Below the pieces are notes generated by a model. The model was not told the origin of the DNA. It searched no databases and was given only the letters and a program-made list of their open reading frames with translations. A DNA stretch of 64,000 nucleotides, taken from contig JAHLVW010000059.1 of NCBI GenBank assembly GCA_019058275.1, positions 1-64,000 on the forward strand. The letters are read 5' to 3'. Of the stretch, positions 1-16,779 are shown in pieces. Within the stretch, counting starts at the first letter, position 1, and each line of letters starts with the position of its first letter. Source of the stretch: Candidatus Heimdallarchaeota archaeon. Its GTDB lineage: Archaea > Asgardarchaeota > Heimdallarchaeia > JABLTI01. Made by a program: the position numbers and the translations under genes.

Positions 1-1085
1 CATGAAATGTTAATTATATGTACAATATTTGGAATATTCATTCCCAATTCTAGCAAAGATGTTGCAAATAAAAACCTGATAGTGCCATTATAAATTCCTT
101 TTAGTATGCTTGTTTTTTCTTTGTTGTTTAATTGACTGTTAATGCAAGCAAATGGTGAATGTATTTTTAGAATTTCATCTGGAATATTTGTTTTTTTCTT
201 TAGCAATTCATTGCATTTTGCAACCAACTCACCTACCTTTCGAATATCATCAACAAAGATAACACAAACTCCTTTTACCTTACGCAAGTAGGGATCTATT
301 TTTTCTAAAAGTAGATCTTCTATTGATTCTGGCTGTAGGAGCATTACCCTTACGGAACCTCTTGTAGCATTTCCTGTAATAATTTGGGCAGAAGGAAGAA
401 ATTTATCACGAAAAGTCTCGACTTCTTTTACAGTAGCAGAAGCTAGAATAACTCTTAGCTTAGGATTAATTCTTTTAAAGATAGCAATTATTTCACGAAC
501 ATGAGCAAGATACCCACCTGAACCTGCATGAATTTCATCAACAACAAAAGCACCAGCATTTAACAACCAATCTAAAAAATCATTATTGCTTTCTTTAAAG
601 AAACGATAAAATAGTTTGTCAATCGTTGCTAGAATAATATTAGGTTTGCTCTTTTCTATGAATTCAATTTCCTTTCGTTTTAAATCACCATTGTATCTGC
701 TGTAGGTAATTTTTTTTCCTGTTGCTTCATGAATTTTATTGCAATATTTGGCAATTCGTTTTTCTTGGTCCTCTGCTAATTGCTTAGTTGGATAGATAAT
801 AATAGCACAGTTAATCTTACCATTAATGACCTCCTCCAAAATCGGGAATAAAAATGCTTCAGATTTACCTGAACCTGTTCCGACTGCAAGGAAGCAATCA
901 TTTCCTTTAAGTACAGTTCCAATGGCTTCTAATTGATAAGAGTAAAGCTTATTTGGAAATATTTCTTGAATACTTTTGCCAATTTCCTTTAATCCTACTT
1001 CATCACTACCTATATAATAATCTGATACATAACACTTCGATGGTGGTAAATCAAAAACTGATTTCACGAGTGCTCCATTAGACAT
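1..1085 (-). CDS. SF2 DEAD/DEAH-box helicase (Hrq1/SftH/Lhr-like), 3' end runs off the window
   Basis: Not in the ORF track; translated by hand from ATG 1085: MSNGALVKSV...LYSYQLEAI (Q motif), AVGTGSGKS (Walker A), IYPTKQLAEDQ (Ia), VVDEIH (II), LASAT (III), ATSLLELGMNI (V). Open to position 1. Confidence 0.9.
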   Translation of the reverse strand, partial: MSNGALVKSVFDLPPSKCYVSDYYIGSDEVGLKEIGKSIQEIFPNKLYSYQLEAIGTVLKGNDCFLAVGTGSGKSEAFLFPILEEVINGKINCAIIIYPTKQLAEDQEKRIAKYCNKIHEATGKKITYSRYNGDLKRKEIEFIEKSKPNIILATIDKLFYRFFKESNNDFLDWLLNAGAFVVDEIHAGSGGYLAHVREIIAIFKRINPKLRVILASATVKEVETFRDKFLPSAQIITGNATRGSVRVMLLQPESIEDLLLEKIDPYLRKVKGVCVIFVDDIRKVGELVAKCNELLKKKTNIPDEILKIHSPFACINSQLNNKEKTSILKGIYNGTIRFLFATSLLELGMNIPNIVHIINIS

Positions 1086-1088
1086 TTC

Positions 1089-1640
1089 TTATCCCACCAC
1101 TATTCTTGCTCCAACAATGTATTCCCAAATTGAATTAAGCTTGCCCTTCAGATATAGCTCGAATTTCTCATCAAAATCCATTGGTGAATACTTCTCAACA
1201 ATTTCATCAATTACTGATTCAATCATTTCAAATTGCTCATTCACTTCAATAAATTCCAATTGACCAAGCAATTCCTTGATTTCTTTCTGAAGGAGCTCTT
1301 CTTGTTTCTTTATCTCAGAATTTCTCAGAAAATTGTCTGCTATTTCATCAAGCTTCTTATAATCAAATAGCAACTCAGAAGGAAATTCTTTTCCTTTAAT
1401 CAAACAATTATATAGCTTGTTTAGATGAGCCAAAGATTCTTCTTTTATTCCATATCTATATTGATTTTTTCTTCCCAGACGCCAAATCAGCTTGTCTTTT
1501 TGCAATGCCTTGAGTGTAAGATATGTTTCACTGAGAGGTAAGTTTACCTCTATAGAGATCTCTTTTGCGCTCTTAGGATGAATTGCGCCTAACTCATTAT
1601 AATCCTTAAGTAAAAAGAGCATTACTCCAAATTTATCCAT
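1089..1640 (-). CDS. Winged-helix DNA-binding protein with helical C-terminus
   Basis: SAKEISIEVNLPLSETYLTLKALQKDKLIWRLGRKNQYRYGI has wHTH spacing. Overlaps the upstream stop and ends 3 nt before the helicase start. Confidence 0.6.
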   Translation of the reverse strand: MDKFGVMLFLLKDYNELGAIHPKSAKEISIEVNLPLSETYLTLKALQKDKLIWRLGRKNQYRYGIKEESLAHLNKLYNCLIKGKEFPSELLFDYKKLDEIADNFLRNSEIKKQEELLQKEIKELLGQLEFIEVNEQFEMIESVIDEIVEKYSPMDFDEKFELYLKGKLNSIWEYIVGARIVVG

Positions 1641-3118
1641 GATACAGGTAGCTCCAATAATGTTTCACTATATTCTTTAGTAATTGGTGATAATTGACCG
1701 ATTTTTTTGCCATGTTTTAGAAGGTGCTTATCTTCTCTATCAGTAAATAAGAATGCAAGTTTCTCAAAATTAGCAATTTCATGGTTTACCCTTTGATCTA
1801 TATGTTTTGATCTCATCCAAACCAATGGTTGAAAGTCAAGTTTTTGGATTTCCTCTTGACAGATTTGAAAAGTACATTCACCTAAGTCATCCCTTACTTT
1901 TGCTGGCAAATATTCCCATTCTAACATTAACCGCCAAAGTTTAACCGCAAAATTATTCCCCAAGTCTGAACCTCTGATAAGCAGATGTTCCTCTTCTAAC
2001 CTATCACCAATATTCGATAACAAAAGATCAAATTCATCAATTTCTTCCCTGCAAGCATCTCTAAAAGAGGAATAATGTTTTCCTCTATGATAACATGAGC
2101 TTTCGAAAAGTTCTTCCTTCTTCTCATAAAGGATATCGCATCCAAATCTTGAAACGATATAAAGATTCTCTCCTTTGAAACCTCTTAATCGATCAACTTC
2201 ATCTCGAGTAATTTCTTCAGCTAATATTGCATCGACCAGTTTAGTGTGCCCTGCTTTCTTTAAGGAATCGCAAAGATCTAATGGCAATCCCATCCAAGAA
2301 AGGTCTGAATAATAACTGAAATGAGAAAATCCACCAACTCCTAAATAGTTAATATTTTTCTCTTCAAGAAGCTTCCACATTTCTTCCTCATAGAACTGGT
2401 ATGTTGTATTAAATAAGGCATCTGCAGATGTTCGAGCCATACTATTATAATTTCCTACCATGCGTTTTAGTTGGTAGAGTCTGTCAGAAATACGATGGCT
2501 TATTTTAAAATTAAATGGTTCTATCAGCTTGTTAGTAAATTTCCAGAGAATTTCTGCTACAAGACCTTCTGCTGAATTGCATAGCATGTTTGCATGACTA
2601 TGATAACCATAGAGATGTGCATCTCCAATTTTATCTACATACTTTTGTAACGCTCTTTGTTCAGGTATCATTCCTTGCAAGGTAAAAATTATACTAAGAT
2701 CACTTTTTATTGCTGATTTTAAGTAAAGATTGTTGAATCCATTGCTTAATCTTATTGCATCAACATAAATTGCTCTCCTGGGTTCTATTCTTTCGACATT
2801 AAACCAACTGCTTAAGTGAGTTTTTCGTTCATAATAACAACCATGGTCAAGTAATCTTTGTTTTATCTCTTCTTGAATACCTGCATAATCATAGATGAAT
2901 TTAATATCTTCTAGTTTATATCTAATATCTCCAATAAAGAGATCATCATTGATTATTCTTACATCATATCCTTGATATATTGTTATGCCTAAATTAGTTC
3001 TTGCTTTTTCTATCTCTTCAACTCCCAAGCCTGTTAACTGATATATCTGGTCATAAAGTATATGACTGCTATCTTTTATGCATTTTACATATTGTTTTTT
3101 GGTATTTTTTTTATTCAT
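1622..3118 (-). CDS. cas1: Highly diverged Cas1/casposase-like integrase (solo, no CRISPR)
   Basis: Cas1-like N-terminal beta domain (YDVRIINDDLFIGDIRYKLEDIKFI...LLDHG), then NSAEGLVAEILW (E184), SADALFNTTY (cf. DPvNAlLNYgY), GGFSH (H266), LPLDLCDSLK (D281/D284, cf. LvyDLmEpfR) and C-terminal DFQP, in Cas1 order and spacing. Confidence 0.72.
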   Translation of the reverse strand: MNKKNTKKQYVKCIKDSSHILYDQIYQLTGLGVEEIEKARTNLGITIYQGYDVRIINDDLFIGDIRYKLEDIKFIYDYAGIQEEIKQRLLDHGCYYERKTHLSSWFNVERIEPRRAIYVDAIRLSNGFNNLYLKSAIKSDLSIIFTLQGMIPEQRALQKYVDKIGDAHLYGYHSHANMLCNSAEGLVAEILWKFTNKLIEPFNFKISHRISDRLYQLKRMVGNYNSMARTSADALFNTTYQFYEEEMWKLLEEKNINYLGVGGFSHFSYYSDLSWMGLPLDLCDSLKKAGHTKLVDAILAEEITRDEVDRLRGFKGENLYIVSRFGCDILYEKKEELFESSCYHRGKHYSSFRDACREEIDEFDLLLSNIGDRLEEEHLLIRGSDLGNNFAVKLWRLMLEWEYLPAKVRDDLGECTFQICQEEIQKLDFQPLVWMRSKHIDQRVNHEIANFEKLAFLFTDREDKHLLKHGKKIGQLSPITKEYSETLLELPVSWINLE

Positions 3119-3144
3119 TTTTATCTCTCAACTAGTTAATTTAA

Positions 3145-5251
3145 TCAATTTCTCTCCTGTACTAGCTTAAATGCTGAGCCGCATCTTGAGCAACGTGTTT
3201 GAATTGATCCTTGCTGAGGAAACGCAGCATTGCCTAATGCCTTTAGTGGGACCTTTTCTTTACGTTCACTGCAGAATGGGCAAAAATGTGTGAATTCTTC
3301 CTCCCCGTCTGCTGAATAACCATCAAATCTTTTAGGCACTATTTTATTGAATTCATCAATGGTGAAATGGATCTCTAAAATATCTGCCTTTAGAAATGCC
3401 TCGCAAGCAACAGTATTTTTTCTAAGAATCGAGGTTGAAATATAGCCCATTTTGTCTTTTGGAACCTTTCGCTCTGCAGTATCTCTCACTTCTCGCCAAA
3501 AATTGCAGCAGTTTTTATTGAAATGGGTAGCAGTTGCCACATTTCTCAAAGAAATGCTTTGGGATTTCTTTTGTTGAATAGTATGTAACGCTTCTCCCAA
3601 TTGGTGGTTTTACTGTAATAGTGTTTAGTGATAATGAACTGTTTTTTTCAAGATTATCCAATGCTAGTTCAACATCTGAATTCAGTAATGAGAGGTTGAG
3701 AGCAATTTGTGTTCTAGTTAATGGTTGTGTTGCATATTCTAGTTCTTCCTTTATTGCTTGCTCGATAGCTAATCTATCTTTCTTTCCAACTAATGGTTCA
3801 TCTAATATTTCGAGATTTTGAACTATTGCTTTGCTAATGAGAGTGAAGTTCTTTTTAGCTCCTGGTGACATTTGGTCTTGAAAACTTACTAATAATCTAT
3901 AAACTTTAAAAACGGAATAGCTATCTTGTGTTCGTGAAAGAATTTTAGCAATTGTTTCTTCTTCATCATTCTTTTTTGTTTTTAGTCTTCCAAGCAGTAT
4001 TTGTAGATCATTGTAAGCTAATCTTCCATCAGTAAAATTATGAAATATTTCTGAAATAATGTTCCAATCTATAATATCATTTTGTGTTCTGTTTTTGATA
4101 TCTAATAATACGCCAATTGGATCTTCTTGTATTTCTTTGAAATATGTCGATGCTATAAGGAATTTCTTGCCAAATGTGGTAAGAGTATATTTTCCTGAAT
4201 TTCCATTGGCTCTCAAAACTAAAGCGAATTTTCCTAGACTTTGTTGGCACAATTCAAATAAACATTCAGAGGAATATGTTGATTTAAATAATTCCTCAAA
4301 TAAAATTTCTTGAAGAAATTCTGGATTGGTTCTTGACTCGTGAGTATTTTGAAGCAAACGATAGTTAGCTGAATTTTGTATTCGTTTCGTTAATTGTTTT
4401 TTAGTAGGATGACCTGAATAAAGTCTTAGTAACATAGAATATGGGAGAACATATCGCAGATTTTCTTTAATAGAATGTCTATCCATATAAGAACTAAAAT
4501 CAAGCTCATGATCTCCCGTAATTTTAGCTGTTGTTGTTACCTTTAGCATGCTCTTCTGTTCATCTAAAGAAACTATTCCAGGAGAGATATAATGCATTCT
4601 AATGTTTAAGTTATTCATTCTTCTCTTAAAAAACAATATCCCATCTATATCAAAAGTTGTGAAACTCTCTGTAGCTCTTCTTAGAGATCTGTTTTCACCA
4701 AAAGGATCAACAAAAATATACGCATTGGTAAGTGGTAAAGTAACTCTGTTCTTTAATTCTACTACGGAACTTTTCCGATAGAGTAAATTTCGAAGAAGGT
4801 TATCATAGCTTGTAATTATTATACAGTCATTAGCTGAAGGATAACTGTTTCCTTTGAATTTTGAAAAAGTGGAAGCAACACGAATAGCATATTTATCTAT
4901 TGGAGGAGAAATAGTTTCATTTGTTAAGTCATCACTGGAAAAGTTATTCTTTTGATGTGGATTGAGTATGTTGTATATTTTTCTTGCTTCAGCAGAAGTT
5001 CGAACCACAATTAATGATGAAGTATTGACAAAACGAGCATTCAGAAGAGCTAAAGTAACAGCAATTTGCAATTGCTCATCTAGATCTGGTGTTGCAAAAA
5101 GCAAGTCTTCTCTGCAATTAACAGCTTTTCGAATACTTTCTTTGTCAATGTTTGAAGGAAATGGAAAATCTCGCAGAACTGTAGTAATAGCTTTAGGTAG
5201 AGCATTTATGAATCCCAAGTTAATCCCCCTTATTATCTTGTAGAAAATCAT
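3145..5251 (-). CDS. Probable single ~700-aa gene split by a +1 frameshift at ~3525: inactivated Hel308/Ski2-like helicase domain, winged helix, wHTH, Cys cluster, Zn ribbon
   Basis: Track ORFs 3515..5251 and 3145..3600 overlap. Removing one C from TACCCAT gives CGNCYHFNKNCCNFW. The N-terminus follows the SF2 RecA1 layout with degenerate motifs (ATPDLDEQ for Walker A, IIITSYDNL, IFVDP for DExH). C-terminal CPFC...CSRC. Confidence 0.55.
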
Positions 5252-5852
5252 TTAGTGTAGGAATTTTAGTTACGCTTGTTCCTTCGCTGAATACTCTAAT
5301 TATGGACTTAAAAGAGTCTTTGATTTCATCTTTTGAAGAGTCTGATAAATCAAAGTTATCAGTTAATTCATTCAGCAAATCTTCTCGAAGGTCTGATAAA
5401 TAATCGTCCTTTGACTTTAAACAATCTAAAATTGACTGAAGATGCTCTTTAACATCTTGTAACTTCTCAATTCTTGTGGAATCTACCTTATGTTTTTGAG
5501 TTAAAGAAACTTCATGATGAGGTTGGAATAAACTCATTATAAACCTGAATAATGGATTATTGACTTTAACTCGATAAGATTGAGTATTTGATCGTGGAAG
5601 CTTTATTAAAATGCCAAATTCTATAAAAGATAAAACTAAACGATCTATTGTTCTAGAAGATAAGGATAATTTTTCATCGAATTTGAAAGTGTTTAATGAA
5701 GGATAATAATATCTACCATGTTTTATAGCGCTGTTAAATAAGTATTTGCAGAAAATTTTCACCAAGTTTGTAATTTTAACCCTTACACTTGGCAATTCCT
5801 TGTAAATGTCCTTTTCTTGAGCTATTGATGATTCCGAAGACATTATTCTCAT
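5220..5852 (-). CDS. Hypothetical protein with probable wHTH; first gene of the Cas1 operon
   Basis: LSLSSRTIDRLVLSFIEFGILIKLPRSNTQSYRV resembles a wHTH recognition helix plus wing; overlaps the next gene. Confidence 0.5.
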   Translation of the reverse strand: MRIMSSESSIAQEKDIYKELPSVRVKITNLVKIFCKYLFNSAIKHGRYYYPSLNTFKFDEKLSLSSRTIDRLVLSFIEFGILIKLPRSNTQSYRVKVNNPLFRFIMSLFQPHHEVSLTQKHKVDSTRIEKLQDVKEHLQSILDCLKSKDDYLSDLREDLLNELTDNFDLSDSSKDEIKDSFKSIIRVFSEGTSVTKIPTLNDFLQDNKGD

Positions 5853-6163
5853 ACTCTTTCTATCAAGTTTTGTTTAAAAAGCGCTAAATTCGTCAGAAAA
5901 CAGAAAGAAAAATGAATTATGAGGATTAAAATCATCAAAAACCAGAAACAAGATTATGAAGAATATGAAGCATTCGCCAATAGACAAAAAGGCTCAAAAA
6001 ATCAGTCAAAAAAGAAGGCAGGAGAAGGCTTCTTTTTATATAGCGGAAGGTTACTTTAAGTCCCTTTAGAATTAACAAAATGATGTAATTTTGTATTTTT
6101 TACTGTTTTTTTGTTTTTTTTCTGTAGAGGTACTCACAAACAATTTATCTTCTTTGTTTCTCT

Positions 6164-6243
6164 CTGAAGCTCGTGTCGAAGACGACTGTAAAAGGAGGTC
6201 TCCACGAAGTGGAGGAAATAGGTCGCACGAGGGGAGCGTTCAG
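6164..6243 (+). other. GC-rich nested hairpin cluster with cGAAg triloops
   Basis: CTGAA(6164-68)/TTCAG(6239-43), CTCGTG(6170-75)/CACGAG(6226-31), CTCCAC-GAA-GTGGAG(6200-14) and GTC-GAA-GAC(6175-83) in otherwise very AT-rich DNA. Confidence 0.6.
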
Positions 6244-6356
6244 TGACTGAGAAGGATGGAATAGGAAATAGTTACACTTTCAGATTTTGAGGGTAATTCT
6301 AAAGTCTTCTTTCTGCTCAACATTTCGGAATTGCTCTTCAAATCTCTAAATTATTT

Positions 6357-7970
6357 CTATTCTTTTTTAATTCGAAAGAATGTTGTTATATATTGATAGA
6401 GAACTGAATTTTGTAGTTGGTTATTTGTTACTTTCACACCAAAATAGTCACTAAGTGTTTTGTGTAAGTCAGTCTTTTTTTCAGCCGGTTGTTTAATAAG
6501 TAGATACCTTCTTCTTATTGCTAAGTTTTTTACTAGATTCAACAATTTCTCATTTGGTTGCAAATCTAATCGTGCCATAGCTTTTCGAGAACGAAAATAC
6601 TCTAATTTATTTTCAACTAGAAACTGCATTAATTGTTCAGAGGTATTTAGTAATTTTGGTAAGAGTTTTACTAGAAGAGGAAGGGGAAAACTATTACGTC
6701 TTTCATAAGCTGCTAAATGTCCTTTAGGTATAGTTAGAAAGTCTGCGAGCTCTTGTTGAGTCCACGACCAAATCTTCCGGACTGTTCTCATGAATTCTGT
6801 ACAATTATTAACATTTAGATTAGGGATGAGTGCAAAATTAAAATAAGATTCACCATTTAGCGTAATGATGGTTTCAAGATTGATATTATCAATTCGGTAC
6901 TTGTTTGGATCTTCAATTAAATGAAGCCTTTTTTTAGAAAGATATCGATGATATTCCTTTCGTTTTAGGGGGTGTCTTGGGTGCAAAAACTTGCTTAGAA
7001 GATCTTTAGAAGTTGCTTTAATATCTAATGAATAACTAGTGCCAAATTCAGTATTGATAGTTCGAGTGGAATATTTTATGTTATAGTTAGTGAGGACTTT
7101 TACAAATTCCTTAACAAAAAACTTAGAAGAAGAGCAGAAATTAACGTTGTTCTTATAACTGCCATCTGCATCTAAAACACCACTCCAAAACTCCCATCGC
7201 AGTTTTTCATCTGAAACAAAAATGAGAGGTTCTCGTAATGCATGGTATTTTTTACCGGTAATAGGTTGATCAGTTAAGAAATTGACCAATCGTACAAGCC
7301 ATTTATTGTTTAAGTGAAGCAACCAGACATTTTTCTCTCCAGTAATTGATCCCTCAAGACTAAAAAGAGACATTGCTAGTGCTTGTAGCATGAGTATATG
7401 TTCTTGTGAGAAATCAACCAATTCAATATTATGATAATTGAGATGACCATCACCAATAACAATTCCGAGGAAATAAGCTAAATCATCTATCAGTTTTGTA
7501 GGCATGCGAAATTGTTCTCCACGAGCAGATTGGAAAGGAACATGATCTTGGCTGAGGAAATCTTGCCAGAAATCACACAACCGGAAAAGAGGAAAAGGTA
7601 ATCGTTGTTGATTCTCTGTATAATCAATGATTTTTTGCTGCCATTTCTTGATAGAGTAATCAATAGCTGTATCTTGGAAATAATAATGGCATCTCTCAGC
7701 TACCTTCAGTGACTGTTTGCGTAAATTGAGCGCTAAATTAGATGGAAGAGAAATATAAGGCAACCGCTGAAGCTGTCGCTTTCCTGCAAGAAAGTCGTGC
7801 TTGCGAACCATAATGGTATAAAGGTTAAGGATGTTTGGTTTAAGGAATATCTTTGATTGTTTGTGCTGTTCTATTAGTTTGTTTGCTGTCAGCCAATCAT
7901 TTTCCTTTGTTGGATTTGAATCTATAAGCAATGGATCCTTTGACCAGTGGAGATGAGTGGTAATTTTCAT
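6357..7970 (-). CDS. Free-standing double-motif LAGLIDADG endonuclease with C-terminal XRE-type HTH
   Basis: LAYFLGIVIGDG and EFWSGVLDADGS motifs; WSWTQQELADFLTIPKGHLAAYER HTH; GGAGGA SD upstream; no intein splice residues. Confidence 0.8.
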   Translation of the reverse strand: MKITTHLHWSKDPLLIDSNPTKENDWLTANKLIEQHKQSKIFLKPNILNLYTIMVRKHDFLAGKRQLQRLPYISLPSNLALNLRKQSLKVAERCHYYFQDTAIDYSIKKWQQKIIDYTENQQRLPFPLFRLCDFWQDFLSQDHVPFQSARGEQFRMPTKLIDDLAYFLGIVIGDGHLNYHNIELVDFSQEHILMLQALAMSLFSLEGSITGEKNVWLLHLNNKWLVRLVNFLTDQPITGKKYHALREPLIFVSDEKLRWEFWSGVLDADGSYKNNVNFCSSSKFFVKEFVKVLTNYNIKYSTRTINTEFGTSYSLDIKATSKDLLSKFLHPRHPLKRKEYHRYLSKKRLHLIEDPNKYRIDNINLETIITLNGESYFNFALIPNLNVNNCTEFMRTVRKIWSWTQQELADFLTIPKGHLAAYERRNSFPLPLLVKLLPKLLNTSEQLMQFLVENKLEYFRSRKAMARLDLQPNEKLLNLVKNLAIRRRYLLIKQPAEKKTDLHKTLSDYFGVKVTNNQLQNSVLYQYITTFFRIKKE

Positions 7971-8031
7971 GTCCTCCTAGGAATTAGTTAGGGATTTCAA
8001 TTCTTAAATACCTCTTTGTACAACCATTGAA

Positions 8032-9781
8032 ATAGCTAATTGTTTAACTATTTTTTTAAATTAAAAATTATTTTTTCTAGTATATAATTAATACTTTCGG
8101 TATACTCCTTAGAAAATAGCTATATATCTAGCTGTATATATATTTTGTTGAAGAAAAATGCCCCGAAAAGAGAACCTACTCATCAAAAGCTACCAATTCA
8201 AGTTGCCAAAAGACGAACGTTTGGTTGGTTTCCAAGAACTCACAATAACAGCAGCGAAAAAACTACTCGAAAAACTCTGGTCAAAAGAATGGCTCTTGAA
8301 ACTTGGAACGGGTGACCTCAAAGCCTACAAGATCATCAACGAAGTACAAGTAGAACTAGAAGGCATTTACTTCCCATCTAGAGTTTGAAGGGGAATAGCA
8401 GAATGGGCAGGACGAATAATTAGAGGGCAATACAAACGTTTCTGTTGCTTTAAAGACTGCCTTGAAATAATCAATTGGTTGGGTGAAACATCGAGTAAAG
8501 CAAAATTAGTAGCTGCAGTAATGAAACATTGCCGAGAGACAATAAAAACAAAGAAAGGCAAAAGGACCTATGCACGATACAAGAAAATCATGGTGGAGCA
8601 AACAATAACGATGATTACTAAATGGCTGAAGCAATTGCCTAATATCTTTGAGCTGTTCGCTTACACTGATTTCGTGAAACCAAAAATAAAACGATTCGCT
8701 TTTCCTTTTGGACCAGATGAGGGGAACGCAATACAATACTTCTCTAACAAGGAAAAAGTCCACATTAAAATGAAGCTACCAACTTGTACAAAGCCAAGAA
8801 GCAGAAAAGACTGGGAGTGGATAGAGCAAGAACTAACTACCCCAACAAAAATACGAGCAAAAATAGAGCTAGCTTTATCACTGCAACCTAAAAATCCGAC
8901 CCTGAGAAATCAAAAGCTCAAAGGAGGACTAACCCATTTCTTCCTCCAGTTTCCATGGGAATACCCAAAAACAAGAAAAAAAGAAGAGAATGGTCAAGTA
9001 TTAGCAGTTGACCTTGGCCTGAAAAAAGTCGCGACAATAGTTATATTCGAGAACGGCAAACAAATCTCACATCCGATCACAATCAAGCTCAAAGGCTCGC
9101 AGTATCGCCACGTCGAACGGATTTATAATCAAATCGTTGGTATTCAAAAGCAGCTTGCAAAAGAAAAGAAAGGTAAGCAAACAAAGAGGAGTAAGAATAA
9201 AAGAAGAGGAAAGAAGAAGGCTCTACCAAAAGAGAAATCGTCTGGGAGAGGAATTAGCACATAATTCGACAAGTATCTTGATACTGTTAGCTCTCGAGTG
9301 GTCTTGCTCGAAAATAGTCATAGAAGATCTTCGCTCGTTCAAACCACCAAGAGGTAGGAGAAGCTGGTCAAGAAGACTCTCACAATGGCTGAGAGGAAGA
9401 ATAGCATTCCTTCTAGAATACAAGTGCAAAGAAGCAGGACTAACGCTTTTAAAAGTCTGCCCATGGAATACTTCAAGTCATTGCCCACGCTGCACAGCAA
9501 AGGGAGTGAAAGTTAAGGGACCAAACAATTTGGTCGCTGATAAGAAAGGTCGCTGGTTCCACTGCCCAGAATGCGGTTTTACAGCAGATCGCGACTATAT
9601 CGCAGCTGTGAATATTTACCGAGCAAGCTTTATCGATTATAAAAAAATTAAATGTCTCAAAGACACCAGTCCCGTGCCCTATATGGACCCGGGAACCCTC
9701 TGCTCAACTGTTCCTAGCGGGGGACTAGAGATGAACCATAACGGACTCGTTATGGTAACTGGGAATAGATAAATATTTCAA
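8032..9781 (+). mobile_element. Non-autonomous tnpB-only (IS1341-like) element; boundaries tentative
   Basis: Visibly higher GC than flanks; perfect subterminal hairpin ACCATAACG-GACT-CGTTATGGT (9735-9756) followed by TTCAA (9777-81); TTGAA at 8027-31 as candidate left target motif; no tnpA. Confidence 0.5.
8158..9772 (+). pseudogene. tnpB: TnpB (IS200/IS605-family RNA-guided nuclease, long ~540-aa type), disrupted
   Basis: RuvC-I VLAVDLG, RuvC-II IVIEDL, Zn finger CPRC...CPEC, RuvC-III DRDYIAAVNI. In-frame TGA at 8386-8388 and a frameshift in the A-rich tract at ~9160-9190 join three track ORFs. Confidence 0.88.
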
Positions 9782-9806
9782 TGATTTTGTCCATAAAAGA
9801 AGGAAC

Positions 9807-9888: not shown

Positions 9889-10608
9889 TTACACAAGTTC
9901 TTTTGCTTTTGAGATATTCATATCTATGATATCTTTTGCATTTGGATTGATCTCAAATCCAACATATTTTCTATTTAATTTAATGCATGCAACAGCGGTT
10001 GTGCCATTCCCCATAAAGGGATCGAGAACTAAATCATTTTCTTTACTTGAGTACTTTAGAAGTTTTTCAACTAATTCGTTTGGTAATTTAGTGGAGTTTT
10101 TCTTTTCACCTGGAAGGTATTCACGCTTGATTTCCCAAACATCTTCCGGATAATGATCAACCTTATTGAAGAAATATTTCTTTGGATTTTTCACTAAAAA
10201 CAAGATATGATAGTGACTCGTAACAAATTTCCTTTTTGTAAAAACACCAAATTGGTACTTCCATATGATATGATTTTGTGTTGTAAAACCAGCTTCATCT
10301 ATAGCAATCAAAATATCCTTCAAATTTGTCCAACCTGAGATAATGTAAGCACTACCTGTTTCTTTCAGTACAGGATAAATTGCTTTTATCCATCCTTTAG
10401 AGAATTCAAAGTAATCCTCTCGAGTTATTTCACTATAGCCCTTTACAACAAACTCACTTTTTCTGTTGTACTGGCTACCTTTACCATCAAAACTTATACC
10501 AAAAGGAGGATCAGCAATAATGAGGTCTATGGAATTCTCATCTATTCTTTTGGAGATATTTTCTATACAGTCCTCATAATAGATAACATCGAATACCATA
10601 AGCTTCAA
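9889..10608 (-). CDS. Orphan beta-class N4/N6 DNA methyltransferase
   Basis: IIADPPF (motif IV) near the N-terminus, VLDPFMGNGTT (motif I) near the C-terminus. Confidence 0.9.
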   Translation of the reverse strand: MKLMVFDVIYYEDCIENISKRIDENSIDLIIADPPFGISFDGKGSQYNRKSEFVVKGYSEITREDYFEFSKGWIKAIYPVLKETGSAYIISGWTNLKDILIAIDEAGFTTQNHIIWKYQFGVFTKRKFVTSHYHILFLVKNPKKYFFNKVDHYPEDVWEIKREYLPGEKKNSTKLPNELVEKLLKYSSKENDLVLDPFMGNGTTAVACIKLNRKYVGFEINPNAKDIIDMNISKAKELV

Positions 10609-10849: not shown

Positions 10850-10890
10850 AAATCACCTTGTTTAGAACCAAAAAACTTGTCGAGGATTAT

Positions 10891-13800
10891 ATGGTTTTGA
10901 CAACTGAGGAAATACAAGAACATATCATTATCAAGGGTGCTAGACAACATAATCTTAAGAATGTCAACCTAGATATACCAAGGAATAAACTTGTGGTCTT
11001 AACAGGTGTATCTGGTTCTGGAAAATCTTCACTAGCGTTTGATACTATTTTTGCAGAAGGACAAAGAAGGTATATTGAATCTTTATCAGCATATGCTAGA
11101 CAATTTATGGCTCAAATGAGTAAACCAGATATTGATTCTATTGAAGGTTTATCACCAGCAGTTTCTATAAGTCAGAAAACAACCAGCTATAATCCGAGAA
11201 GTACAGTCGGAACTGTAACAGAAATTTATGATTTTATGAGAGTGTTATTTGCCAGAATAGGTATTCCTCATTGTCCTAAATGTAACATTGAGATTAAGGC
11301 TCAAACTGTAACTAATATAGTTCAACAAGTTTTGAAAGATTATTCAGGTATGGAAATCATGGTTTTATCACCCATTGTAAGAGATCGAAAAGGTGAATAC
11401 CGTAAAGAGCTCAAAGGGTTGCTTGAATCGGGTTACTCTCGAGCAAGAATCGATTTTGAAATAAAACGCTTAGATGAGATGAAAAGTGAAGAAATGGTTC
11501 TTTCACGATATTTCCGCCATACAATAGAGGCTGTTATTGATAGAATTAGTGTTGATGTAGAAGAAGAAGATCGAATCGCTGAATCAATTGAAACCGCAGT
11601 GACTCTTTCAGATGGATTAGTTATAATAACAACCTTAGAAGCTTCTCAGATAAAGAGACGTCTTACACAAGAGAAGAAGAAAACTGATGATAAAAATGAA
11701 GAGGAGTTAGAGGGAAAAATACTTGAAGAACAAATTGGTGAAATGTTATTCTCTATTCATTTAGCATGTCCTAAATGTGGACTAAGTTTTCCAAAATTAG
11801 AACCAAGAAACTTCTCGTTTAACTCAATACATGGTGCTTGTCCTGATTGTAAAGGACTTGGAACAACTATTGAAGTTGATCCAGAAATTCTAGTTGTAAG
11901 CAAGGAATTATCATTAGCTAATGGAGCGTTAGCAGATTATGATCCTAATACGAAACGATTTAGACTAGCAAATATGAGAATCAATAGGATTAAAGCTATA
12001 GCTGAGAAACTAGAATTTTCAATTGATACTCCTCTTAAAGAACTAACAGATCAACAATGGAATGATTTCTTTTATGGTCCGAAGAAACCAATAATGGTTA
12101 ATTATGAGTTCTCATGGTCGGATAAACGAGGGGGGAGAGGGAAAGGAACTGCAAAGCTAAAATTCTCAGGTTTAGGACCAATAATAATGAATCGTTTTAG
12201 GCGTACAAGCTCGCAATATATTCGAGATTTTATTCAGGAATTTAGCTCCCCTGTGAAATGTTCCAAATGTAATGGTTCAGGTTTAAAGGTTGAAAGTCGA
12301 TCAGTAGTTTTCAAAGGAAAAACTATTGCAGATTTAGCTGGTATGTCAATTACTGATTGCATAGATTTTGTAAATTCAATAAAGCTGTTTAAGAATGAGA
12401 AAAAGATTGCTGAAAATTTACTCAAAGAAATAACAATGAGACTAGAATTTCTCATCAATGTAGGATTACCTTATTTAACTTTAAGCAGAAGAGCAAACTC
12501 CTTATCAGGTGGCGAAAGTCAAAGAATAAGATTAGGGACACAAATTGGATCCAGTCTTGAAAACGTACTATATATTTTAGATGAACCAAGTATTGGATTA
12601 CACAACCGAGATAACTTGAAGCTCATAAAAACCCTTGAGAGCTTGAGAGATAAGGGAAATACTGTACTTGTTTCAGAGCATGATATTGATACAATGCTAG
12701 CTGCAGATTGGTTAATTGATATAGGACCAAAAGCAGGTAACTTTGGTGGAGAAATATTAACTGAAGGACCTCCAGAAATAATCGCTAAGCATAAGAAATC
12801 CATTACAGGGAAATATCTTTCAGGTAAAGCTAAAATTAAAACTCCAAGGAAAAGGAGAATTGGTAATGGCAAGATACTGAAAGTTTTAGGTGCTGCTGAA
12901 AACAACTTGAAAGCTATTGATGTGGAGTTTCCATTAGGACTTTTCATATGTGTTACAGGAGTAAGTGGTTCCGGTAAAAGCTCACTTGTTAGCGATGTAA
13001 TGTGGAAGACCCTTGCCAGAACCCTAAATAGAGCAAAAACTAAGCCTGGAAAACATGTGGGGATGGAAGGCACAGAGCATCTTGATAAGGTAATTGAAAT
13101 AGATCAATCACCAATAGGTTACACTCCAAGATCAGTTCCTGCGACATACACTAAAGTGTTAGATCATATAAGAGATTTTTATTCTGCATTACCCATATCC
13201 AAGGCAAGAGGGTTCAAGAAAGGTAGATTCTCTTTCAATACAAAATTAGGCAGATGTTCTGCTTGTAATGGTTTAGGATATAATAGAATAGAGATGCAAT
13301 TTTTACCTAATATCGAAGTTGAGTGTGAAATTTGTTTAGGGAAAAGATATAGTGCGGAAACTCTTGAGATTAAATATCACGATAAGAGCATTCACCAAGT
13401 ATTGGATATGACTGTTAATAATGCACTCGAATTCTTTAAGGATCATCCAAAAATCTCTACCATCCTAAAAACTATGCAAGAAGTTGGTCTAGGATATATT
13501 AAATTGGGGCAGTCCTCAACTACTTTATCAGGTGGTGAGGCACAACGAATTAAGATTTCTCGAGAGTTAAGTAAGAAAGCCACAGGAAAGACACTTTACA
13601 TTCTTGAAGAACCAACCGTAGGTTTACATTCATATGATGTGAATAATTTATTGGCTGTTCTGAATCGATTAGTAGATGCAGGAAATACAGTTGTTGTTGT
13701 TGAGCATAATTTAGATGTAATAAAGTGTGCAGATTGGATCATTGATCTTGGACCTGAGGGAGGAGAAGCAGGAGGGCAAGTAATAGCAACTGGCACACCA

Positions 13801-16779
13801 GAGAATTTAGTAAAGAATGATAACTCATACACGGGTATTGCTTTAAGAAAAGCCCTTACAGACAAATTAATTGTTGACCCAAGCACCATATCTTCGCGTG
13901 AAAAATCATTTGATAGTGTAAAGTCAAGAAACTCTATTAGTATAACTGGGGCAAGAAAGAACAACCTGAAAAATATCAATCTAAGTATACCTAAAAATAA
14001 GCTAATAGTTATAACAGGAATAAGTGGATCTGGTAAATCCTCACTAGCTCTTGATACCCTCTTTGCTGAAGGACAAAGAAGATTTATTGAATCATTATCA
14101 ACTTATGCTAGACAATTTCTAGGTACAATGGATACTACAAGTGTTGACAAGATTGAAGGATTGTCTCCAGCAATTGCTATAGGCCAGAAATCTGCAGGTA
14201 GAAACCCAAGATCAACTGTAGGTACAGTTACTGAAATTAATGATTATTTGAGATTATTATTTGCAACTGTTGGAATCGCTTATTGTCCAATTTGCAACAA
14301 GGACATAAGTCCTTTGACTTTACAAGAAATGGTAAAAAGAACTCTAAGCCTAGGTGAAGGAACTCGAATTAAGATTATTGCTCCATTGGTAAAGGAATCC
14401 CAAGGAAATTTCAAACCACTAATTAAGGAACTGATTAAGGAAGGTTTTACCCGAGTAATAATTGACAATAAGGATGAAGTTCTATTAGAAGAAATAACAT
14501 TTACAGGTAAAGGAAAAGCTGTTCTAGTTAAAGATAAACTAAATACAATAGAACTTGTTGTAGATCGTTTAGTGGTTGATAAAGATGATATTGGTCAATT
14601 ATATGATTCAATTGAGATTGCTTTGCATAAAGGTGAGGGAGTAGTTAGAATAAGTGCAAATGGAGATACTTTGTCCTTCAGTACAAGAAGAAAGTGTTTT
14701 GACTGTGGAGTAGAATTACCTGAAAAATTCACTCCAAAGATGTTTTCATTTAACACTCATGTAGGAGCATGTGACAAATGTTCAGGGTTAGGAGTGATCA
14801 AGTCAATAGATCCAAAATTATTCATAGCAGATACTAGCAAATCCATCAGGCAAGGAGCTATTGGACCAATTACTAAGAACAAAGTTGAAAGCAATTGGAT
14901 GGTATCATTGATTAAAAGTTTGGGAGATGCTTTTGGATTTACACTAGATACACCAATAAAGGACTTAACTGAGGAACAATATCAAATTCTATTTTACGGT
15001 TCAGATAAGAAATTCAAGCAAGTAAGAGATGTTAAGAGAAGAAATTATGCTTATACCTATGAGAGAGAAAGAGAGTTTCGAGGATTAATACCCATTTATG
15101 AAGGATGGTTATCTAAAACAACATCCTATTGGTGGCTTAATTGGATGGAAAAATTCGTCCGAGTTCAAGAATGTTCTAGTTGCCATGGTACAAGGTTAAA
15201 GCCAGAGTTACTAGCAATTCGTGTAGGTGGCTTAAACATTGATGAAATGACAAAGTGCTCTATCGCTGAAGCTTACAATTTCTTCGGTAATCTATCTTTT
15301 GGAGGAGCGGATCAGATTATAGCTGAAGGATTAATTGAGGAAGTACTAGATAGACTCAAGTTTCTTATTGATGTTGGACTTGATTATCTCACATTGAATA
15401 GGGAAGCTCGTACTCTCGCTGGTGGAGAAGCCCAAAGAATTAGATTAGCAAATCAGATTGGGAATAAACTCGTTGGTGTGTTATATGTTTTGGATGAACC
15501 AAGTATAGGATTACATCCAAGAGATAATCAAAGATTGATTAATACTCTAACTGAGTTGCGAGATTTAGGAAACTCTGTTATTGTAATTGAACATGACGAA
15601 GCAACAATTAGAAGTGCAGACCATATAATAGATTTAGGACCAGGTGCTGGAGTAAATGGAGGAAACATTGTTGCTCAAGGTACAATAGAAGAAATTATGG
15701 GAAGTACAAATTCAATAACTGGAAAATATCTTAGTGGAAAGGAAAACATACCAATTCCTAAGAAAAGAAGAAAAGGTCAAGAATTTTTAACTATAAAAGG
15801 AGTTAGACAAAATAACCTTAGAAGTATAACAGCAAAATTCCCACTTGGTGTCTTTAATTGTGTTACTGGTGTAAGTGGTTCTGGTAAAAGTTCACTGGTA
15901 ATAGAAACATTGTATCGTGCTTTAGCAAAAACCTATCATAGATCAAAAGCAGAAGTAGGAAAATATGATTCAATAGATGGTTTGGAAAGTCTTGACAAAG
16001 TTATTATGATTAATCAGAATCCAATTGGTCGAACACCAAGATCTAATCCAGCGACCTATACTGGTTTGTTTGATCATATAAGAGACCTATTTGCTAAACT
16101 ACCTGAAGCAAAGATGAGGGGGTTCACAAATTCACGCTTTTCATATAATAGCTCTCGAGGGAGATGCCAAATTTGTCATGGCCGTGGAACAAAAGAGATA
16201 GAGATGCTGTTCTTAAGCAATGTTGAGATTATTTGTGAAGAATGTTATGGAAGAAGATACAATCGAGAAACACTTCGAGTGAAATTTAAAGGGAAAAGCA
16301 TTGCAGATGTTCTAGAGATGACAATTGAGGATGCAATGCCATTCTTTGAAAACCAACCAAAGATTCTCAAGATTTTAGAAGTGATGGATGAAGTAGGACT
16401 TGGATATTTACAACTCGGACAATCAGCAACGACATTATCAGGAGGAGAGGCTCAAAGAGTTAAGTTAGCCTCTGAGTTATGCCGACCTCAAACAAAGAAA
16501 ACTTTGTATATTTTAGATGAACCAACTGTAGGTTTATCAGCATATGATGTCCACAAATTATTGAACATTTTGAATAAATTAGTCAATGTTGGTAACACAG
16601 TAATAATTATTGAACACAACCTTGATGTAGTGAAAAGTGCAGATTGGATCATTGATCTTGGACCTGAGGGAGGAGACAAGGGTGGACAAGTTGTTGCTAC
16701 TGGAACACCTGAACAGATAAAAAGTAATGCAAAATCAATAACAGGGCAATATCTAAATGATTATTTGCAACTAAAATAG
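10891..16779 (+). CDS. uvrA: Double-length (tandem-fused) excinuclease ABC subunit UvrA
   Basis: Two complete UvrA units: four G(V/I)SGSGKSSL Walker A motifs, four L(S/A)GGExQR signatures, CxxC Zn modules. ATG 10891 has a GAGGA SD (track start 10858). Confidence 0.95.

Follow-up and report, generated by a model that had tools for sequence, protein, structure and literature searches.

We analyzed a window of 64,000 nucleotides of Candidatus Heimdallarchaeota DNA, one end of which carries a run of conserved genes around an interrupted gene at positions 3145-5251. The genes and features of this end of the window are as follows:

3..1085, minus strand: active SF2 helicase (MrfA/YprA- and Lhr-like), the N-terminal part of a 779-aa protein, cut by the contig start
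1089..1640, minus strand: conserved operon member of 183 aa with weak wHTH signals
1622..3118, minus strand: aCas1, by predicted structure a distant Cas1/casposase homologue, 498 aa, fused in relatives to the domains encoded at 3145-5251
3145..5251, minus strand: the gene under study, 701 codons when read through
3524..3527, minus strand: one-base insertion in that gene, at a CCC run (TAC-CCA-TTT, where relatives read Y-[YHC]-...)
5220..5852, minus strand: conserved upstream gene of 210 aa, overlapping the start of the 3145-5251 gene
6357..7970, minus strand: LAGLIDADG-HTH gene of 537 aa, of a kind that accompanies aCas1 modules
8158..9806, plus strand: a broken TnpB gene and, 34 nt past its stop, the left junction at which the inserted block ends (9806/9807)

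The conserved order runs from the LAGLIDADG-HTH gene through a gene of ~210 aa, the 3145-5251 gene, aCas1, a gene of ~185 aa, and an SF2 helicase of ~780 aa to a metallophosphoesterase of ~215 aa. In a second (sister) assembly, a metallophosphoesterase of 218 aa follows the helicase. The motifs of the operon helicase were intact; its closest solved relative by sequence was YprA/MrfA, and its nearest models in a defense library were BrxHI, Cas3, SngC, and DruE. About ten diverged versions of the module were detected in the genome, most of them beside a LAGLIDADG-HTH paralogue, and in nearly all of the paralogous modules the helicase and the phosphoesterase come after aCas1. Paralogues of the 537-aa LAGLIDADG-HTH protein itself number more than 20 in this 4.1-Mb genome, at 28-65% identity, and the majority lie beside an aCas1/helicase module; homing, regulation, and element maintenance are candidate roles that the protein may serve. 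In a more distant relative (locus L001, 6191-9115), genes for a 729-aa NERD-domain protein and a HEAT-repeat protein stand upstream, replacing the LAGLIDADG-HTH and TnpB genes, which indicates that the upstream part of the element is variable.

The operon gene set lies on a block of ~11.8 kb between methyltransferase and DUF1295 genes (5413 to about 17169 at the sister-assembly locus L011; positions 1-9806 of the window are its assembled part). Seven congeneric species were found without the block. In these, the UvrA-dimer, methyltransferase, and DUF1295 genes are neighbors, with the last two ~300 bp apart. Because the same site is empty in seven congeners, the ~11.8-kb block was inserted as a unit. 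The tnpB gene at its left end is in at least two pieces in the window (an OrfB_IS605 piece at 8479-9264 and a TNB piece at 9137-9772) and is intact on a related contig. At the junctions we detected neither terminal inverted repeats inside the insertion nor a long or 14- to 15-bp target duplication, the right junction being fixed to a few tens of bases. Since a 4-nt AACC repeat is all that the two junctions share, the insertion looks unlike casposon-type staggered integration, and in showing no 14- to 15-bp duplication the aCas1 block differs from casposase elements. As neither a long target duplication nor casposon-like inverted repeats at the termini were seen, transposition driven by aCas1 is only putative. 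Searching the block for repeats gave nothing convincing: the single flanking inverted pair (18 nt, 83%) was rejected for the element ends, as its left arm falls outside the insertion. No tandem repeats or CRISPR-like array were detected within the window.

The host flank at the block junction reads GGTTCGCTCT and resembles the GTTCACTCA motif; in its treatment of these genes, the paper deposited as PMC10691335 describes the GTTCACTCA motif downstream of aCas1-linked tnpB genes. Bordering the insertion on the host side is a gene for an N6/N4 DNA methyltransferase (9889-10608, minus strand; Pfam E 9e-45), near which no partner restriction gene was noticed. Farther along, a 1,973-aa open reading frame (10858-16779, plus strand) carries two full UvrA domain sets, that is, a covalent UvrA dimer, and its synteny was kept in 7/7 congeners examined.

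State of the 3145-5251 gene

On the minus strand, the 3145-5251 gene is divided between two overlapping open reading frames in different frames, ORF A (3515-5251, 578 aa) and ORF B (3145-3600, 151 aa). The gene may in fact begin at the TTG near position 5218 that is annotated as the start in the sister assembly. In an alignment with 19 relatives, all uninterrupted and 674-709 aa long, no gap separates the two pieces (...CGNCY / HFNKNCCNFW...). The break is therefore explained by one extra base at the CCC run (approximately 3524-3527), which brings a TAA stop into frame at 3515-3517, and the joined pieces come to 701 aa, the same frameshift-corrected length that had been given in an initial annotation made from the sequence. 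The sister assembly (99.88% identity over 12 kb, 14 mismatches) has an identical frameshift, which is thus no one-off assembly error. Programmed frameshifting at 3524-3527 was considered and rejected: it would require a +1 shift at TAC-CCA-TTT, for which we found no support, and we know of no slippery pattern that this string matches.

All of the family-invariant residues (76/76) are intact across both sides of the frameshift, which argues that the lesion is young. The window copy is probably either a young pseudogene or a gene whose product is made as two pieces. In another species of the genus (G082:C11:83280-85350), a homologue with internal stops lies in two pieces beside an intact aCas1, so decay of this gene recurs. 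We give an even chance to the reading that the copy in the window no longer has any function and is just a leftover in decay. Its insertion is present in two assemblies, the tnpB gene of the same inserted block is in pieces, and the copy in the other species is likewise broken. However, the invariant residues are preserved on either side of the break, the remaining operon genes are all open, and translation of the distal piece could begin anew at a GTG 26 nt ahead of the stop, where the gene caller of the sister assembly has a 131-aa ORF.

Predicted fold of the pseudo-helicase protein

Searches with Pfam, NCBIfam, and PADLOC returned no significant family for the 3145-5251 protein, and its family profile matched nothing among PDB sequences. 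Given these empty profile searches, the helicase likeness of the protein is structural only. The structure used here was an AlphaFold2 model of P0006, a relative 69% identical to the 3145-5251 protein (mean pLDDT 66.8, pTM 0.64), in which residues 30-400 were mostly at pLDDT 75-89 and the C-terminal 130 residues at 30-69. The top PDB matches of this model in Foldseek were all Hel308, the PolQ helicase domain, Brr2, and ASCC3 (E 3e-6 to 5e-4). With VIA-align, model residues 20-476 aligned to Hel308 residues 2-627 at Z 19.4 (rmsd 5.0, 344 residues aligned), and both Brr2 cassettes, ASCC3, Slh1, and PolQ aligned at Z 17-19. The nearest ESM Atlas cluster consisted of archaeal DEAD+Helicase_C+Sec63 helicases (388 residues aligned); single-domain DEAD/ResIII proteins in the Atlas aligned to P0006 residues 18-249 alone (rmsd 3.7-3.9, 183-185 residues). 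The resulting domains and sites, all within the 3145-5251 gene, are as follows:

4502..5200, minus strand: RecA1-like alpha/beta domain without Walker A or DExH, residues ~18-249, from model and alignment
4151..4480, minus strand: Hel308-type winged-helix (WH) domain, residues 257-366, helices and a single hairpin
3779..4138, minus strand: all-helical ratchet-like domain, residues 371-490; joined to the WH as the second component of a Sec63-type unit
3575..3775, minus strand: wHTH, residues 492-558, three helices and a beta hairpin
3403..3541, minus strand: first invariant Cys4 site, CxxC-x7-C-x33-C, from the alignment; the frameshift falls inside this site
3160..3300, minus strand: second invariant Cys4 site, zinc-ribbon-like, CxxC-x26-CxxC, from the alignment

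Residues 18-249 of P0006 adopt, in the model, the RecA1 fold of Ski2-like/Hel308 helicases, matching both DEAD/ResIII proteins and Hel308 domain 1. A WH plus ratchet unit of the Sec63 type follows: the alignment reaches Hel308 residue 627 and the Brr2 cassettes, and the best Atlas cluster has Pfam Sec63. RecA2 is absent, with no Helicase_C match by Pfam and a chain that passes from residue 249 to the helix-rich WH. Since what follows residue 249 is a WH with one hairpin (257-366) and then an all-helical stretch (371-490), a RecA2 of ~205 residues has no place.

Neither GxGKT nor DExH was found at its expected place in any of 19 relatives (0/19) or in the fused relatives scanned. The sole Walker-A-like string in the latter, GKIGKT at residue 329 of the giant C27 protein, is unrelated and does not lie at the P-loop position. 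Across the family, the P-loop position (strand-loop-helix) reads T-P-D-L-D-E-Q, the motif II strand reads Y-I-F-V-D-P-x-x-E, and the place of motif III reads I-S-P-G. Ghosts of motifs Ia, Ic, II, and III can thus be made out in the RecA1-like domain (IVVRT, IIITSY, YIFVDP, and ISPG, respectively), and the conserved strings at the motif Ia and Ic places suggest that its nucleic-acid-facing side has been retained. As modeled, the 3145-5251 protein is a Hel308/Brr2-type cassette minus RecA2 and minus every ATPase motif. Comparison of its family with the operon helicases by hhalign gave a probability of 0.1, which argues that the protein is no recent, detectable duplicate of its partner helicase.

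These results agree in most respects with the initial annotation, which had described a dead Hel308-type RecA1 lacking GKT and DExH, no RecA2, and a Hel308-like winged helix straight after RecA1. Helicase-fold matches, whose absence from residues 1-370 it had named as evidence that would count against it, were strong in that region. The domain order that it gave (RecA1, WH, wHTH) stood as far as it went, but the ratchet domain between WH and wHTH had been missed. Its wHTH is seen in the secondary structure of the model and at the corresponding place in distant relatives, where HTH-type Pfam matches (FaeA, GntR/HTH_11, S25) were found; HTH_11 was matched in a paralogue from the same genome.

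Eight cysteines are invariant in the family: C570, C573, C581, and C615, followed by C656, C659, C686, and C689 (P0006 numbering). Where a cluster CxxC-x6-CC...C had been proposed, the family has a four-Cys site, but of the window's "CC" the second Cys alone is conserved. This first Cys4 site is a candidate for either the Fe-S cluster suggested in the initial annotation or zinc. Strands were predicted around the last four cysteines, a region of low pLDDT. Matches to Zn_ribbon_5 (8/19 members) and PF0610-like_N (7/19) were weak and all under Pfam thresholds. As the C-terminal 130 residues are poorly modeled, the zinc sites rest on the sequence pattern together with these sub-threshold matches; on that footing the double Cys4 module probably binds zinc. 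Language-model look-alikes of the C-terminal 215 residues scored 0.80 or less and gave no lead.

Association with aCas1

The 498-aa protein encoded at 1622-3118 had no match in Pfam. By structure (model pLDDT 77.2), its top 50 PDB matches were exclusively Cas1 or casposase (E 8e-8, TM by target 0.56), and these matches place it in the Cas1 two-domain fold. E184, H266, and D281, a candidate catalytic Glu/His/Asp triad, are invariant in its family with Cas1-like spacing, as judged by sequence alignment. A 623-aa paralogue in the same genome matched the family profile (E 1.5e-15) and scored 22.8 bits against Pfam Cas_Cas1, the gathering threshold being 22.3 bits. The identification of this neighbor as a Cas1 in the initial annotation is therefore upheld by the structure matches and by a paralogue that passes Pfam Cas_Cas1. 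This paralogue (G000 contig C48, 25004-26872; locus L019) was the sole family member here to reach the Pfam Cas1 threshold. In it a wHTH-Zn part is fused directly to aCas1, and its module is without the MrfA/Lhr-like helicase.

A search of 5.8 billion proteins returned 21 relatives of the 3145-5251 protein, of which the full-length ones were 674-709 aa and uninterrupted. The two named relatives are Heimdallarchaeota hypothetical proteins, and none carried a Pfam domain. A full-library search with the family HMM gave 19 matches among 1.84 billion representatives. The family occurred in 8 of 400 Asgard genomes, 7 of them from one genus, and the aCas1 family in 14 of 400, spread over five genera. 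Directly downstream of every full-length 3145-5251 homologue found (seven genomes of the genus) was aCas1.

In many relatives, several of them in the window's own genome, the domains of the 3145-5251 protein are joined to Cas1 in fused chains of 620-1,376 aa (fused forms were found in P0026, C93, C106, C17, C50, C27, G083, and G397). For example, P0026 (1,215 aa) matches first the complete 3145-5251 protein (residues 41-723) and then the complete aCas1 (residues 721-1212). Fusions in the window's own genome include proteins of 1,009 aa and 1,046 aa and giants of 1,284-1,376 aa, the first ~640 residues of which align to residues 77-699 of the 3145-5251 protein (99.5% probability, E 1.7e-22). 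Shorter fusions retain the wHTH-Cys8 module alone, immediately before the Cas1 domain. Because these domains and aCas1 occupy one chain in relatives, the 3145-5251 protein is the split-off N-terminal half of aCas1. The initial annotation had linked the protein physically to Cas1 and had looked to co-occurrence with this Cas1 clade as a check: the natural fusions provide the link, and aCas1 was adjacent at all loci found, or fused. The adaptor between Cas1 and the active helicase that it had also proposed is putative, operon co-occurrence being the support for it. A complex prediction for aCas1 with residues 488-701 of the 3145-5251 protein (score 0.20, mark 0.32) weighs neither for nor against binding.

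Proposed role and comparison with known systems

We propose, at a probability of roughly 0.6, that aCas1 is split here and that the 3145-5251 gene supplies its non-catalytic, N-terminal half, a putative DNA-binding scaffold on an ~11.8-kb element with TnpB at one end. According to this proposal, the protein would remain attached to aCas1, much as the two are joined in the single-chain forms, and would act as a static scaffold that holds and recognizes DNA. Binding of duplex DNA would fall to the wHTH-zinc module; the RecA1-WH-ratchet remnant would grip a single-stranded tail or a junction but would not translocate on it. Between them, the two would set the aCas1 integrase in place, either at the target or at the ends of the element. 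DNA ends would probably be processed, in preparation or in repair, by the co-encoded MrfA/Lhr-like helicase and metallophosphoesterase. A more specific version, which we offer as speculation and consider unlikely, makes the RecA2-less Hel308 cassette a static clamp on ssDNA tails or forks that would present a structure-specific substrate or target to a Cas1-family integrase and would also dock the MrfA/Lhr-like helicase. Such an assembly would amount to a transposition machine in which Cas1 is coupled to a helicase, and we know of no described counterpart. If true, it would show how a helicase becomes a DNA-recognition domain through deletion of one motor half.

The same operon could be imagined as a CRISPR-less innate defense system, in which the dead cassette and the wHTH-Zn module would sense foreign DNA and pass it to the helicase and phosphoesterase, with the Cas1-like protein serving as a nuclease. 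The partner helicase has its best defense-library matches in BrxHI, Cas3, SngC, and DruE; one genome holds about ten diversified paralogous modules, a pattern often seen in defense genes; and the junctions show no clear terminal repeats or long duplication. Nonetheless, the 3145-5251 protein and the other small proteins match no PADLOC model, copies are often broken, and the block is an insertion that ends 34 nt after the tnpB gene. In addition, loci of this type have been published as transposons, with aCas1 as the likely transposase, in the part of Altae-Tran et al. (2023, PMC10691335) that deals with them. We consequently regard a defense function as doubtful, although the two readings can overlap, defense islands being themselves possibly mobile. 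Less probable still is a role in which the dead cassette mainly regulates the active MrfA/Lhr-like helicase by docking to it in the manner of Brr2, tuning or targeting its unwinding, with the tie to Cas1 secondary. In its favor, the best structural matches include the two cassettes of Brr2 (Z 18-19), of which the C-terminal one is inactive, and the helicase and phosphoesterase accompany aCas1 in nearly all modules. Against such a role, the protein has no sequence relation to its partner helicase, all fusions found are to aCas1 and none to the helicase, and one wHTH-Zn-aCas1 module is without this helicase. Moreover, the inactive cassette of Brr2 has a RecA2 and a bound nucleotide, whereas the 3145-5251 cassette has neither.

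Cas1 integrases underlie CRISPR adaptation and casposon transposition. To our knowledge, no Cas1 relatives have diverged further than those of Asgard archaea, and the latter are wholly uncharacterized. The primary paper on these Asgard Cas1 homologues (aCas1) is Makarova et al. 2020 (CRISPR J 3:156). The casposase (PDB 6opm), among the best structural matches of the 1622-3118 protein, is likewise an integrase of the Cas1 family and depends on an extra DNA-binding domain of the HTH type. That domain is small and C-terminal in the casposase, whereas the accessory domains of aCas1 here amount to ~700 residues and are N-terminal or in a separate chain. The window locus fits the Asgard aCas1-TnpB loci as they are characterized in the relevant part of PMC10691335: an Asgard-only, CRISPR-less, very diverged Cas1 beside TnpB, predicted to be a transposase. 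Because the empty-site comparison shows that the block was inserted, it supports the published guess in that part of the paper that aCas1 loci are mobile elements (PMC10691335). The passages on aCas1 there make no mention of a dead helicase cassette ahead of aCas1 or of its split into separate genes.

The wHTH followed by a CxxC...CxxC ribbon resembles the PF0610 / TFE-type combination of wHTH and zinc ribbon, from which the 3145-5251 protein differs by an extra Cys4 site between the two, the Pfam matches all being sub-threshold. Relative to Hel308/Hjm (PDB 2p6r, 2va8, 2zj8), RecA1, WH, and ratchet are in the same order and arrangement (Z 17-19.4). However, the 3145-5251 protein is without RecA2, Walker A, DExH, and the HhH domain 5, carries wHTH and Cys8 modules instead, and has no detectable sequence similarity to these helicases. 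The inactive C-terminal cassette of Brr2 (and the tandem cassettes of ASCC3 and Slh1) is likewise of the Ski2/Hel308 type, serves as a non-catalytic platform, and matches as well as Hel308 does. In Brr2 the inactive cassette is fused to an active one; in contrast, the natural fusion partner of the 3145-5251 protein is a Cas1 integrase. The inactive cassette of Brr2 has both RecA1 and RecA2 and is able to bind nucleotide. Helicase decay in the 3145-5251 family is therefore unusual in that RecA2 has been lost, whereas known dead cassettes such as that of Brr2 keep both RecA domains. Up to half of the giant aCas1 proteins consists of a gutted Hel308-type helicase and a wHTH-zinc module, as modeled and aligned here, and one lineage has split off that part as a gene of its own. 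With these data, the domains of aCas1 integrases are mapped concretely for the first time, together with a subunit model that is open to testing; the architecture is new and brings together two kinds already known, the dead helicase cassette and the Asgard Cas1 element.
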